Source: Dictyostelium discoideum
Lineage: Eukaryota
Length of the DNA stretch: 64,000 bases
Direction of reading: 5' to 3'
Assembly: GCA_000004695.1 (NCBI GenBank)
Contig: CM000150.2
Location: forward strand, 1,088,001 to 1,152,000
Below, piece by piece: positions 2,569 to 44,710 of the stretch. The notes under the pieces are model-generated. The model was given only the letters and a program-made list of their open reading frames with translations. It did no database searches and was not told the origin of the DNA. The position numbers were made by a program, and so were the translations under genes. The number at the start of each line of letters is the position of its first letter. Position 1 is the stretch's first letter.

Positions 2569-3282
2569 TTTTTTTTTTTTTTTAAAATATGTTAGTTATT
2601 TAAAATTAGTTTTATGATCTTTTTTTAAATAAATATCTAAATTTGTTTATTAAATTAATAATGATTAAATTACCTTTTTTTTTTTTTTAATTTATATTTT
2701 TTTTTTAAGTATTAAATTTGAAAATCATAAAATTAAAACAATTCTTTTTTTATTTTCATTATTATTCTTTAAAACTAATGATATTTCTTGTTTGTATATA
2801 TAACACTGAGAAATGAAAAATATTATTTTTCATATTTTAATTTTATACTCTAAGAACAAACATATTTGATTTCCTTAAAAATTAAAAATCTTAAGAAAAT
2901 ATATCTTGGTTTCATATTTAAATGAAAAATAAAACTAAAAAGCACAGTGTGTTAATATATTTTTTTAATTTTAATTTTTTTTTTTGTTCTTTAAGATTAA
3001 AGAAAGTGGTTAAAAACCTTGGAAATTACTCAGCGTAATTTATAATTTTATATTTATTAATGAAGGTTAATTAATATCTCAAATTGAATAATCAAAAAGT
3101 AAAAAAAAATTTTTTTTTTAAATTAAAAAAAAAAAGTATTAATTTTATTTTTAATTAATTAATTAATTTATTTTTTTAATTATTTATTTATTTTTTTTTT
3201 TTTTCAAAAATTTAAAAATGGTGCTTGAAAATTTCAAGTAATTTTTACCAAATGTAATTTTAAAATTAACAAAGGGAAAGAA

Positions 3283-5912: not shown

Positions 5913-6419
5913 TTAACAAAGGGAAAGAATCATTGAGAAAATAATGAGTGATAAACTTGCAACAACAGTTGAAGCAGAACCAGTTGTTGTTGATGTTTGG
6001 GATGGGGTTGGATTTGGTGTATTTGTTGGTGTTGGTGTTACTGTTGGTGTAACTGTTGGTGTAACTGTTGGTGTAACTGTTGGTGCGGGTGTGGCAGTGA
6101 TTTTACAAACTCCACTCCAATCAGAACCGAGTGCATGTGAAGAAGTTTGATCAGCGCAAGTAAATGTATTTGTTACAGCTGGTGTTACTTGAACAGTACA
6201 TTGGTTTGTAGTATATTCGGCAAAAGTGAATTGATTTGTATTGGTAGCATCAGGAATGTAACGGACAAATCTACCACAAACCTCAGTACAAACATTTTGT
6301 ATGACATCTACTGAAGCACAAACTGGATTTTGATTGGCCAATGTTGTTGTGAAATAATCATATGCATTTGCATATGTTAATAGTGATAATAATGCAATAA
6401 ATGTATGTTGGAATTTCAT
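5913..6419 (-). CDS. Small secreted Cys-rich protein with (TPTV)n Thr/Pro linker and GPI-anchor-like C-terminus
   Basis: ATG at 6419. N-terminal signal peptide MKFQHTFIALLSLLTYANA; about 10 Cys in the mature domain; TPTVTPTVTPTVTPTV repeat; C-terminal GSAS omega-like site followed by the hydrophobic tail VVASLSLIIFSMILSLC. Confidence 0.6.
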   Translation of the reverse strand: MKFQHTFIALLSLLTYANAYDYFTTTLANQNPVCASVDVIQNVCTEVCGRFVRYIPDATNTNQFTFAEYTTNQCTVQVTPAVTNTFTCADQTSSHALGSDWSGVCKITATPAPTVTPTVTPTVTPTVTPTPTNTPNPTPSQTSTTTGSASTVVASLSLIIFSMILSLC

Positions 6420-30578: not shown

Positions 30579-33104
<2,526 letters not shown>

Positions 33105-33221: not shown

Positions 33222-33612
33222 ATTGCAGTGTACATTAAAAAAAAAAAAAAAACTTTAACTATAATAAATAAACATTTAATTATGTGATAAATATCACATA
33301 CACTTTTTAAATCAATAATTTATTTTATTATTTATTCAATTTTTAAATTTTCTAAACAAACACCACGCCCAATAAATCATATCAACTTCCATTTAATTAA
33401 ATTAAAATAAAAAAAATTAATAAATAAAATAAAATAAATAATTAAGAAAATAATATTAATATTAAAATTAATATTTTATTGTATTAAAAACTTTAAAAAG
33501 AAATCTTATAGTTTTTGTTGAAATTTATTTATTCATCTGATCTTAAAGATATTATTTCAGAATTATCATAAAGATTAATTGTATCTTTATTTTTTAAATA
33601 AAAAGAATAAAA

Positions 33613-33735
33613 TTGATTGGAACAATAATCATTAAAAAATGGTTCGATGACTCTTATGAACATATAATGGGCGATAAAGGCTTTCAAGGATCCGATAAAT
33701 TATATTTTAAATTTATAGTAATTTCGAGAAAAAAC

Positions 33736-33776
<41 letters not shown>

Positions 33777-34038
33777 TAATGATGGTGATATAAATGGAGA
33801 ATGTTTTGAACCAGAATATTATGTAAGCGATGAAAAAGAATCAGATGCAAGGTTTAAATCGATTAGAATAATAATTGAAAATGTTTTTGCTCACATTAAA
33901 AAATATTCAATTACCTGTCTCACTTTTAGATTTAAGAATAAGATTGAATCAACAACTTTATTGGACTATCATCATAAAATTTGGTGTGTTGTTGCATTTT
34001 TGGTTAACTTGTATGTTGAAATTAGAAAGAAAGAATAA
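33613..34038 (+). mobile_element. 5'-truncated PIF/Harbinger-like (DDE_Tnp_4) transposase relic, C-terminal ~125 aa only
   Basis: The listed 'M' is TTG; the first ATG is at EHIMGDKGF. Motifs: GDKGFQGS (second-Asp region, cf. GDSGYP); E..ARFKSIRIIIENVFAHIKKYSITCLTFRFKN (cf. N..H..R..IERTFGLLK.RFRCL with the catalytic E); KIWCVVAFLVNLYV (cf. C..LHN). No upstream catalytic D or N-terminal domain is present. Confidence 0.45.
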
Positions 34039-34121
34039 ACTCTCATATTAATTTAATATGAAAACAATTTCGACAAAAAAAACATTTTCATTTCACAAAA
34101 AAAAACTTTTTTTTCTGAAAA

Positions 34122-34340
34122 TATTATCATTATTTATTATTTTAAATCTATTATCAAATAAATTATTATATATATTTTTTTTTTTTTTTTTTTGGTGTTT
34201 TGAAGATATTTTTATTTTTCGATAAACAGTTTTTTAAATTTTTTTTTCTAAGTTACTTTTTTTAAGATTGGCATTTTTTGGTGTTTTGAAGATATTTTTA
34301 TTTTTTTCGATAATCAGTTTTTTAAATTTTTTTTTCTTTT
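34122..34340. repeat. Direct repeat R1, internally duplicated ~75-bp unit; left flank of the lectin-gene island
   Basis: ttattttaaatctattatcaaataaattat... and (ttggtgttttgaagatatttttatttttcgataa(a/t)cagttttttaaatttttttttct)x2. The same sequence recurs at 36958..37075. Confidence 0.6.
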
Positions 34341-34623
34341 TTTTTTTTTTATTTTAAATATTCACACTTTCACCAATTAAAACACAAACCCTAAAAAATG
34401 CAATGAGTGAAAGATAACACTCCATTTTGACACCTGTGTTGGTGTTGACTTGAACAAAGATCTAAACCATGGGTTAAAAAAAAAAAAAAAATAAAAATAA
34501 TAGACTTAAAAAAAATATAAATACTTTAAAACTTTTTTTTTTTTTTCATTCTCAAAAATAAATTAAATAACTTTTAAAACAAAAAATTTAAATAAATAAA
34601 ATAAAAAAATTAAAAATAAAGAA

Positions 34624-35895
34624 ATGATAAATATTGAAGATATTTCAAAATCTTCAAATGAAAGTGAAGAAAAACAATTAAAAAGTACAAGTACAAGTTC
34701 AAAACCAAAATACCCATTCGCAGCAAAAAGCTTATTCAAAGGTTCAAATAATATTATACCATATTATTTATCAACCAGTAATACATTCCAATGTGTAGCA
34801 TCTGAGTCAATTCAAACATGGCTTCTTTCAGATGATGGTCATATCTTTACATCCAGTGGTAATTTTGTTTTAGATGTTTCATCAGGTGGTTATTTTGTTG
34901 AATTAGTACAACTTAATTCAAATTCAAAAACTCAAATTTGGACAATTGATACAACAAATAATAAAATTCAAAACCAAGGTAATGGTAAATACCTTGATAT
35001 CGACAATTTGAATATTTGTGTTGCACCTTTAAATGGAAACGCAACTCAAAAATGGACAACTTTTAGAAGAGCACCAATTCCAACTGGTAATTGGGGTTAC
35101 TTTCAAAGCAAAAAATTGGATTCCAATAATAATTATTGGGGTCTAAGTGTATTAAATAATAGTACATCATATAATACTAGTGTAGTAATGAATAAAGTTC
35201 AAGCAAAATCAATAGGTCAAATTTGGCAAATGACAAACGATGGTCACATTTTATCACGTTTGGATGGTAATTTAGTATTAGATATTGGTCCATCAATTAA
35301 TGGTAGTAAAACAAACTATTATTTAAATACCAATGTTTACAAAGCAAATGATCTAATGCAACAATGGGGTATCAACGAAAATAATCAAATATTCAATCAA
35401 TATTATCCAAATTTATGTATTGGATTCGTTGGCGAACTTGGAGTTGATTCAACTGTTAATTGTGTATTAGCTCAACCAACTAGTGCTAGTGATATTAATT
35501 TCCAATGGATTGCAAATCCAACCTATTCATTAAACCAAATTGTTAGTGAAGTACCAGAACCATTTCCAGCTTACACAAGTGGTGATTTATTAGCATCATA
35601 TCAATACCTTAGTAATGATGCAACAAATGGTTATACTGATGATATTAGATCACTTTATACAAGTATTAATGTTAGTTTAGAACATTTCTATGTTAATGTC
35701 TCCAATGCAACTTGTCCATCATCAATTCATTCAACTGAAGATTTTTCAAATGTTCAAAATCAAATCAAAAATGAACTCACCTACGCAATCAATGTCCGTT
35801 TAGTATTTGATAACTATTCCGATTTTTATAGTAAATTATTTAGTCAAGGTAGTACAAATTTAACAAACTTGGCAAATTTAATTAATGTCATCTGA
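34624..35895 (+). CDS. Ricin-B (beta-trefoil, QxW) lectin-domain protein, N-terminal 423-aa part of a Cup-like (calcium-upregulated family) gene
   Basis: ATG at 34624 in an A-rich context. Repeated QxW motifs TQIWTI, TQKWTT, GQIWQM and MQQWGI, with hydrophobic spacing typical of tandem ricin-B beta-trefoil subdomains. Ends at TGA 35893..35895 exactly at a 19-bp tandem duplication. Confidence 0.6.
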
Positions 35896-35900
35896 CCAAG

Positions 35901-36950
35901 TTGTTGTCATCTGACCAAGTTGTAAATGGAAATTACACCGATGCAATTACCAGTGTTTTTTATGCAATTATTTCAGAGATACCAATTGGTGGTTCAATAA
36001 TTGCAAACATTGGTGAGTCAGCAGTAGAATTTGGTGAATTAGATGCTGAAAGTAATGATTCAGGCCCATCAACCTATCAAGTTACATTAAGTAAACTCTA
36101 TGATCATTTAAATGAAAATTATGAAAATGAAATGGCAAATGCCCAAAGAATGAAAAATACCATTTTACAAGATTGGGGTATGATGAGTAAAACCTTTGCA
36201 TTATGTTTCTTACCAACCAATAATCCATCCTCACTCAATATCAATGGATTAGACTTTCAAAAAATTTCTACCATAGCTTCTATAGCTTACCAAACTGCAA
36301 TGATTCAAATGTTATTACCAACTAATTATCAAATTTACTTTACACCAGCTGGTTACTATGCACCAGTTTCAAGTGATGATTACTCTTATACTGATAGTAC
36401 TGGAACCTATATTATGGCGGAAATCGATAACTGTAACTCTCATCCTCCAAAAGCTTTAACCGATAAGTTATGGAATAATGGAGTTTCAAAACAAGAAGTT
36501 TTCACATCTTCCTATGGTTGGAATTTAGCTACCTCTGTGACCTATTACAATATGGTCGGTAGATATGGTGGAATGTTTAAATTATCTTTCCCAACTGTAA
36601 AGAATTTAACATCAGTACCAATTCAATTCGTAATGACCAATGGAAGGGATAGAGTTGGTACTTTCAATGTTAAAACTCATTTTACTGGATTAGCCTCAAC
36701 ATATTACAATTCAGGTGCCCTTGGTCATCATTATTACGATATTGCTGTAACTGATATTAACGGTAACAAGGTTGCAAATTTCACAGTTGACAATAATTTG
36801 GTAGCTCTTGAAGGTAGTTATGTTTCAATCAAAACTAATTCATTAGTTGTTCAACCAGGTTATGTTGTTGGTAATCCAACTTGTAATCAAGGTGGTTTTT
36901 CTCAAGGATTTGCTGCTTCAATTTTAATTCCAATTTATAAATCAAATTAA
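35901..36950 (+). CDS. Probable C-terminal continuation of the same lectin gene in the +2 frame (349 aa); the gene may be frame-disrupted
   Basis: Open frame from TAA 35883..35885 onward; the listed 'M' is TTG and the first ATG is about 60 codons in. Coding-like composition throughout, beta-rich C-terminus. Combined length of about 775 aa matches the Cup-protein size (two ricin domains plus a conserved C-region). Confidence 0.45.
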
Positions 36951-36957
36951 AAAAATC

Positions 36958-37075
36958 GATTTTAATTATTTATTATTTTAAATCTATTATCAAATAAATT
37001 ATATATTTTTTTTTTTCGATAGTTTTATTTTTTTCGATAATCAGTTTTTTAAATTTTTTTTTCTAAGATACTGTT
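36958..37075. repeat. Direct repeat R2, copy of R1 with an internal deletion; right flank of the lectin-gene island
   Basis: ttattttaaatctattatcaaataaattatatattttttt...tttttcgataatcagttttttaaatttttttttctaag matches 34131-34180 and 34300-34340. Confidence 0.6.
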
Positions 37076-38338
37076 ATCTGGTTATCTGAAAAATTAATTT
37101 CTTGATTTGAAATATTACCTTTAATTTTAGATTTGAATTTAATTAATTGATCAAAGAATAAATCGATTCTATTAATATCTAAAAAAAATATTAAATGCTC
37201 ATTTAAAATTTCTAATTTATTACCTCTTTAACTTTTTTCCAATACTTTATAGAGTGATTCAACTGAAGTTTCATCTTCAAAGATTTTTTCAATTGAAATT
37301 TTAAAATTGAAAAATTGATCTTCATCTTCATCCAATTCACCATATACTTCATTAAAATATTTTTAAGATATATAGATTTCATTGACAAGTATTCATATTG
37401 ATTATAGGTTGAATCCAAATCTATAAAAAACTGTTTACCCCCACTATTGGCTTCTTCAATTAAATCATAAGCTTCACAAATCCATTCAAATATATCACAT
37501 TCTTTTAAATATAATTCATAAAGACCTTCTATTAACTTTTGAAATACATTTGCAAACCTTGATTCTGATCGAATATTATCAAAAAAAAATATTTAAAATT
37601 AATGAATTTAATTCAAGTATTGAATGATAGAATGTAGAAAACAAAATTGGTAGAAATCTTTCTTCTAAATTTTCAGTTGAAATTACAAATTCTTGAATAT
37701 AATCATTATAACCAAACTTTATAGAAATTATGAAACAATTTTATCTCAAGTTGAAATTATATTTAAAAATAATTCAAAAGAATCCATTTTAGAATTCATT
37801 AAATATTATTCATCAAAAGATGTATATGAATTAATTGGTAATTTATATTGTGATCATATGGTTATAATGTTTTATATTCTCTATTCATCAGATACTAAAG
37901 ATCAATATTTAGAATTTTTAAATTCAATTAATCCATATTGTTGTTCATCATCGTCACCAGCATGGTCATCATCAATTGATTCAAAACAAAATGAAAATGG
38001 TTCTGATGAAAATGGTGCAGATGAAAAAAGAGAAAAATATTTACATATTCAATCAATTAAATGTTATTTTCCACTTGAATGGAATTTATTTTTAAATAAT
38101 ATTAAATCATATTCTCCATTTAATAAAGTATTATTATTAACTATTTTTAAAATGTTTTCAATCTTTTCTTTTAATATTAAAAAATCTTTATTTATTGAAT
38201 TTCCTTTTTTTAAATATTTCAATGTTAAATTCATTTTCTAAAAACTTTAAATTAAATAATCTTTTTTTAATTTCAAATGATTCAATTTCAAAGAATTTAT
38301 TAATTTCAATTTTTGAAACATTTATATAACCATCTGAT

Positions 38339-40798: not shown

Positions 40799-44710
<3,912 letters not shown>

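Follow-up and report, generated by a model that had tools for sequence, protein, structure and literature searches.

cupA, a Dictyostelium discoideum gene for a ricin-B lectin of the Cup family, is very probably a young, dispersed duplicate of a cupC/cupF-type lectin gene that recent lesions have truncated, and we would class it as an unprocessed pseudogene or a duplicate truncated only recently. We analyzed it within a stretch of 64,000 nucleotides (nt) of D. discoideum AX4 chromosome 1 (assembly GCA_000004695.1, contig CM000150.2, positions 1,088,001 to 1,152,000 of the forward strand; hereafter the window, whose coordinates are used unless another sequence is named), where the gene appears as two successive open reading frames (ORFs). 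Two lesions mark the break between them: an 8-nt deletion and a perfect 19-nt tandem duplication, with a net gain of 11 nt. An earlier reading of the window from its letters alone (the original prediction) had offered three explanations for the break, namely a recent pseudogenising indel cluster, an assembly slip, or two genuinely separate products; the lesions described here support the first, the evidence below refutes the second, and the third finds no support.

cupA is a member of the Cup family split into two reading frames

The first reading frame, ORF1, spans 34624..35895 on the forward strand and encodes 423 amino acids (aa) before a TGA stop at 35893..35895. The second, ORF2 (35901..36950, forward strand), is open for 349 codons and follows after a spacing of only 5 nt in a different frame (window frame 0, as against frame 1 for ORF1), exactly as originally placed. 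An exact-sequence cluster look-up identifies ORF1, residue for residue, as CupA, "Calcium up-regulated protein A" (Q55FW5/XP_647418.1/EAL73186.1). The locus is thus cupA, a gene already on record, with a 423-aa protein in the databases since 2003–2005, and it is neighbored by ORFs DDB_G0268386 and DDB_G0267914; the database records describe the same gene without a single difference from ORF1, end at residue 423, and leave ORF2 undescribed. ORF1, the annotated coding sequence (CDS), matches the Pfam family Ricin_B_lectin over two stretches (E = 8.4e-17). ORF2 matches no Pfam family at E ≤ 0.1 and no NCBIfam family, and a profile search of the PDB returns only ricin-type lectins. A tblastn search of the 64-kb window for cup paralogs matches the cupA locus alone.

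The closest intact paralog is cupC, which shares 97.6% aa identity with ORF1 and 96.3% with ORF2. When aligned to the cupA locus, the cupC protein falls into exactly two pieces, residues 1-420 and 422-769, in two frames, so that homology is collinear across the break, and ORF2 is the out-of-frame remnant of the C-terminal half of a Cup protein, equivalent to residues 422-769. A conceptual fusion of ORF1 and ORF2 aligns to intact 769-aa Cups with up to 94% identity and 100% coverage (AAP40294.1). The original proposal of a Cup-type gene split in two, to be checked by aligning both ORFs to the family, is therefore upheld; its estimate of about 775 aa needs a small correction, as a repaired cupA would encode 771 aa.

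CupC and CupF (Q7Z202 and Q7Z1I0; both intact, 769 aa) have in common with cupA a unit made up of promoter and CDS, and their domain order of two β-trefoils, a helical domain and a β-sandwich is that of ORF1 plus ORF2. Unlike cupA, they lie at other loci, have an uninterrupted ORF, keep the GAT ATG (Asp-Met) codons at the position of the break, and carry the 19-nt unit in single copy. Where the Cup family is defined by a single uninterrupted ORF, cupA has the TGA at 35893..35895 and its downstream half in another frame; it belongs to the family by descent, in truncated form. Cups are reportedly induced by high Ca2+ via calcineurin.

A 19-nt duplication and an 8-nt deletion break the frame

Tandem Repeats Finder reports at the break a repeat of period 19 and 2.0 copies with 100% matches (35886..35923; score 76). 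The unit is TGTCATCTGACCAAGTTGT, and the two perfect copies lie at 35886..35904 and 35905..35923 on the forward strand. The tandem repeat noticed originally is thus real, but it had been set at 35887..35924, one base off, which is why it was scored as 18/19. Only three perfect tandem duplications of period 12-40 nt outside low-complexity sequence occur in the window, and none in 40 Markov-1 shuffles, indicating that the 19-nt duplication is not a chance feature. Copy 1 contains the TGA that ends ORF1, and copy 2 encodes SSDQVV in the frame of ORF2, as intact Cups do. The other two duplications in the window, at 6040 and 12005, have periods divisible by three: 12 nt (ACTGTTGGTGTA) and 18 nt (ACAACAACCAATTGTTCA).

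Relative to its paralogs cupC, cupF and cupE, cupA is also missing the 8 nt TTGATATG, which hold the Asp-Met codons. At the deletion site these three paralogs read AATGTTGATATGTCATCTGACC and cupA reads AATGTCATCTGACC; the junction DNA of all three paralogs is AATGTTGATATGTCATCTGACCAAGTTGTTAATGG. Written in codons, the paralogs run AAT GTT GAT ATG TCA TCT GAC CAA GTT GTT AAT GGA, and cupA runs AAT G|TC ATC TGA and then enters copy 2 of the unit. The deletion maps to 35885..35889 (forward strand), its breakpoint ambiguous owing to ATG/TG microhomology. The Asp-Met pair is conserved here in all intact Cup proteins (as Asn-Met in D. firmibasis).

With 19 nt gained and 8 lost, the net change of +11 nt is 2 mod 3. 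The TGA persists when either 19-nt copy is removed, and only deletions of 2 mod 3 (2, 5, 17 or 20 nt) join the two frames; the earlier arithmetic, by which a 19-nt deletion fails and a 17-nt deletion succeeds, was correct, and the frame stays broken after removal of one repeat copy because the 8-nt deletion is also present. Either lesion alone would produce the same ending, Val-Ile-stop (VI-TGA). We infer that both may be slippage-type lesions, and that they may even stem from a single complex replication-slippage event.

The lesion is present in independent sequences

Short tandem duplications can be assembly slips, and the AX4 reference seems to hold a cupC-like patch elsewhere in cupA (described below), so an artefact, with a true gene of one repeat copy and a continuous frame, deserves consideration. 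Removal of one copy, however, leaves the frame broken, as shown above. Further, over 22 kb the independent assembly GCA_054883475.1 matches the window at 99.7% identity; its cupA likewise spans 2,327 nt, and all 76 nt of the junction are byte-identical. A GenBank protein deposited in 2003 by the group that described the Cup family (AAP40296.1) likewise stops at residue 423, ending ...NLINVI. The identical junction in an independent assembly together with the 423-aa protein of 2003 excludes an assembly slip, and we consider a sequencing or assembly artefact of any kind practically out of the question.

The cupC-like patch lies at 34969..35320 (forward strand) and comprises six single-nucleotide differences, which are all of the differences between the window and GCA_054883475.1 within cupA. 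At six of these six sites the AX4 reference carries the cupC base, and AAP40296.1 agrees with GCA_054883475.1; these two sequences differ from the AX4 reference CupA at four residues, all inside the patch. It reflects either gene conversion from cupC in AX4 or a chimeric Sanger reference.

ORF2 is very unlikely to be a gene of its own or to be reached by recoding

That ORF2 is translated independently might be argued from its 349 open codons in an AT-rich genome, and from a few anonymous metagenomic remote homologs of ~366-375 aa that start with Met near the equivalent position. These short homologs are just 24-29% identical, however, and may be partial gene calls. By contrast, all ~20 dictyostelid homologs are single fused ORFs of ~600-770 aa. 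The first in-frame ATG of ORF2 is codon 78 (36132), so that the ATG-less start recognized earlier is indeed long, but at 77 codons longer than the roughly 60 then given, and the 5 nt between the ORFs contain neither an AT-rich spacer nor a promoter. Translation starting at ORF2 would also cut through one helical bundle in the AlphaFold2 model of an intact Cup. The fused homologs, the missing ATG and the missing AT-rich spacer accordingly speak against two separate products, to which we attach next to no probability.

A full-length protein could in principle still be made if ribosomes shifted frame in a programmed manner or if a micro-intron were spliced out, and an automated annotation in GCA_054883475.1 (KAM9943980.1) does span the break and predicts 765 aa. 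The frames overlap by just 7 nt, however (TGTCATC, 35886..35892), and no slippery heptamer (X XXY YYZ) occurs in this overlap. The "intron" of KAM9943980.1 is 35872..35900, a GC...AG segment of 29 nt with 31% G+C. Real introns in Dictyostelium differ from it: they have GT-AG borders, are very rich in AT and usually measure ~100 nt or more. KAM9943980.1 moreover drops the conserved residues ANLINVDM. We treat it as an annotation artefact with an invented 29-nt intron, and recoding to full length is hardly credible.

cupA is very probably a young dispersed duplicate

Homology between the cupA locus and the cupC and cupF loci forms a block at 34122..36965 that includes the CDS and ~500 bp of promoter. 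The cup-type 5′ flank and promoter, duplicated together with the gene, occupy 34122..34623 on the forward strand and are 97.0% identical over aligned bases to the region upstream of cupC. Just beyond the stop of ORF2, at 36959..37075 (forward strand), the stretch 34123..34260 of the cup 5′ flank recurs as a direct repeat, at a spacing of 2836 nt and with a perfect 23-mer. This repeat is the 3′ boundary of the duplicated unit, and it also matches the regions 5′ of cupC, cupF and cupE. Because these ~120 nt after the stop repeat the cup 5′ flank, the segment resembles a single unit taken out of a tandem array.

Directly upstream of cupA is a C-terminal fragment of a DDE_Tnp_4 (PIF/Harbinger-type) transposase (33613..34038, forward strand; PF13359, E = 2e-7, 31.2 bits against a cutoff of 24.8), which matches only profile positions 74-158 of 158 and contains an internal poly-Asn tract. 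No such fragment was found at the cupC, cupF or cupE loci. In GCA_054859355.1, a divergent D. discoideum isolate with 88-95% identity to the window, the transposase fragment and the whole cupA unit are absent (33645..37081, set against 2705..3056 of locus L009), a presence/absence polymorphism of ~3.4 kb. The flanks in that isolate align to window sequence up to 33261, with weak similarity to 33645, and from 37082 onward, and lie ~350 nt apart; the right edge is sharp (37081/37082) and the left edge uncertain, within ~33262..33645. It is at this right edge that the direct repeat of the cup flank ends.

Synteny in sister taxa is in agreement with a recent arrival. D. citrinum has only one Cup gene, and its synteny is with cupF; the Cup pair of D. 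cf. discoideum lies beside a TOR kinase gene; neither occupies the GLE1-flanked site of cupA. The empty site and the lack of synteny in sister taxa together point to cupA as a young dispersed duplicate, most simply a young lineage-specific insertion. A search for GLE1-domain homologs of the flanking gene (32160..33101), made in the correct frame, returned no match at E ≤ 1e-30, probably through a word-index limitation; the gene is annotated in public assemblies.

We propose that one cup unit of ~2.84 kb, made up of the promoter, the CDS and the first part of the 5′ flank belonging to the following unit, would have inserted on chromosome 1 beside the transposase fragment, between the GLE1-like gene and the next gene downstream. 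Two slippage-type lesions, or one complex event, would then have struck a single spot in mid-gene: an 8-nt deletion between short direct repeats and a perfect 19-nt tandem duplication. The resulting net +11 nt would have cost the gene its frame and brought up the TGA two codons on, such that translation could yield at most the 423-aa CupA product, and ORF2 would be a relic, no longer translated, whose frame has stayed open because so little time has passed since the lesion.

Both halves of cupA are equally close to cupC

Synonymous divergence (dS) between cupA and cupC is ~0.03, and nucleotide identity to cupC is 98.4% for the N-terminal half and 98.2% for the C-terminal half. Neither half of cupA contains further stops, frameshifts or indels, and a single cupA change affects a position that all other members of the Cup family keep unchanged. 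Residues specific to cupA include E13, I45, K116, H233, D332 and S360 in the N-terminal half and R505, L658, I663, V723 and G754 in ORF2. Both halves being equally close to cupC without extra decay, the lesion is recent.

Loss of frame is shared by other Cup genes. CupE and CupD, like cupA, belong to the Cup family and carry frame-disrupting indels, with lesions at other positions. In GCA_054883475.1, cupE (L001 10001..12280) requires three frame switches (frames 2, 3, 1, 2) to align with the cupC protein; UniProt nevertheless lists CupE at 758 aa, with stretches of its sequence out of frame. In cupD (634 aa) the tail beyond ~residue 608 is out of frame. At least three cup genes of AX4 (A, D and E) are thus frame-disrupted. 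The carbohydrate-binding domains of Cups have been described as dictyostelid-specific and evolutionarily dynamic (PMC3188802).

Several observations weigh against a young duplicate in recent decay. The assemblies that carry the lesion may represent one strain lineage (NC4 and its axenic descendants), in which case they confirm the sequence of the junction and not its age. The choice of insertion in the AX4 lineage over deletion in the other isolate depends on a single empty site and on two other taxa that lack synteny. Counts of synonymous and nonsynonymous changes on the branches (5/11 for cupA, 6/3 for cupC, 1/8 for cupF) are too small to indicate relaxed constraint. Finally, the ratio of nonsynonymous to synonymous divergence (dN/dS) in the Cup family is ~0.5 even between intact members, and pairwise dN/dS is uninformative on decay because intact paralogs also reach ~0.5.

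The same lesions would be compatible with a second outcome, in which the 423-aa CupA has been retained as a lectin-only protein, acting as a decoy, a regulator or a dominant-negative of full-length Cups. The promoter region is 97% identical to that of cupC, both β-trefoils are complete and fold independently in the model, ORF1 has a single change at a family-invariant site, and databases treat CupA as a protein. Yet such a product would stop inside a helical bundle and carry ~120 residues of an incomplete domain. ORF1 is also conserved no better than ORF2 (98.4% versus 98.2% to cupC), and equal conservation of the two is what a recent lesion without selection predicts. Further, cupE and cupD are likewise frame-disrupted at unrelated positions, and cupA is not among the Cups named as strongly induced in a transcriptome and proteome study (PMC12750705). 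A literature search on cupA expression found no relevant paper. We consider retention of a lectin-only CupA unlikely, and prefer a recently truncated duplicate.

Truncation removes the hydrophobic hairpin and an aegerolysin-like domain

We mapped the domains on an AlphaFold2 model of an intact Cup (mean predicted local distance difference test score, pLDDT, 85.6; predicted template modelling score, pTM, 0.77). The model shows two β-trefoils (residues 26-296), a domain of long helices (300-561) and a β-rich C-terminal domain (563-767). Within the helical domain lies a hairpin at 427-482 that includes the most hydrophobic stretch of the protein, 435-457. The cupA break, at ~residue 421, falls within the helical domain just N-terminal of this stretch. 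The CupA product therefore retains both ricin-B β-trefoils together with the initial third of the helical domain, ~120 residues, and lacks the hydrophobic hairpin, the remainder of the helical domain and the C-terminal β-sandwich.

The predicted structure of the C-terminal β-domain has an aegerolysin/actinoporin-like β-sandwich fold. An aerolysin/ETX-MTX2-like fold had been suggested for ORF2; this found no support, since the domain shows neither the elongated aerolysin-type β-sheet fold nor a match to the ETX_MTX2 profile. Its likeness to the aegerolysin family (ostreolysin A/pleurotolysin A, RahU, Cry34Ab1) and to actinoporin-like lipid-binding β-sandwiches is one of fold only: there is no sequence-level relationship to the aegerolysins (identity 8-14%), and whereas aegerolysins stand alone, the Cup β-sandwich is fused behind lectin and helical domains.

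Relatives of the C-terminal module occur in other dictyostelids and, at 24-31% identity, in Methylovulum miyakonense (WP_019868280.1), Lysobacter yangpyeongensis (WP_386754513.1) and metagenomes. In the bacterial and metagenomic relatives the module again stands behind ricin-type or bulb-type lectin domains, and these relatives indicate that the family is not restricted to dictyostelids.

Cups are said to become membrane-associated under Ca2+ stress. The half of the protein that CupA lacks would plausibly mediate membrane binding, and a 423-aa CupA, if stable, would then be a lectin unable to bind membranes. This leads to a bolder proposal, in which Cups are membrane-active lectins that combine lectin targeting, a hydrophobic helical hairpin and an aegerolysin-like, putatively lipid-binding β-sandwich, and the truncated CupA is a retained, expressed lectin-only modulator of full-length Cups with separated function. 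The intact promoter and trefoils, the fold match and the bacterial homologs of the same architecture speak for it; as a whole we regard it as improbable, and slightly more so than retention of a lectin-only CupA in general.

Implications for work on Cup paralogs

Taken by itself, cupA matters little: it would be an ordinary decaying duplicate in a family already described as evolutionarily dynamic (PMC3188802). Our analysis contributes a precise description of the lesions, a presence/absence polymorphism for the insertion, the recognition of a cupC-like patch in the AX4 reference, and the predicted fold of the lost half. The CupA entry in UniProt represents a truncated paralog, with its second half located immediately downstream in another frame, and the cupE and cupD models also mask frameshifts. 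Knock-outs, antibodies, RNA-seq mapping and proteomics on Cup paralogs all require knowledge of which copies can yield a full-length protein. As a by-product, the previously unassigned C-terminal half of Cups has a confident predicted structure that ends in an aegerolysin-like β-sandwich; this predicted fold would fit the membrane association reported for Cups and suggests a testable idea of their function.

Neighboring genes and other Cup loci

An 856-aa ORF 5 kb downstream of cupA (42140..44710) was considered as a Ca2+-ATPase and rejected, for it matches Na,K-ATPases at E = 4e-259 and SERCA at ~1e-97. It is part of an Na,K-ATPase α-type (P2C) pump, and since the pump is not of the Ca2+ type there is no calcium-related gene neighborhood here.

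D. citrinum has one Cup gene (L012 10001..12292) where D. discoideum has a tandem pair that includes cupF (L011 5959..12310), and the downstream neighbors at the two loci are alike (PX, His_Phos_1 and ComC/EGF genes). This shared site is probably the ancestral cup locus. The Cup pair of D. cf. discoideum, arranged head to head, adjoins a gene with a Phage_integrase (tyrosine recombinase) domain (L013 4801..5989), possibly a DIRS-type element, and is another instance of cup copies beside the remains of a mobile element. In D. discoideum, a stretch of 360 nt ~1 kb upstream of cupC, within a 1370-aa gene model (L010 8123..8480), is 84% identical to the 3′ end of cupA (36598..36956) and looks like the relic of a further cup copy.

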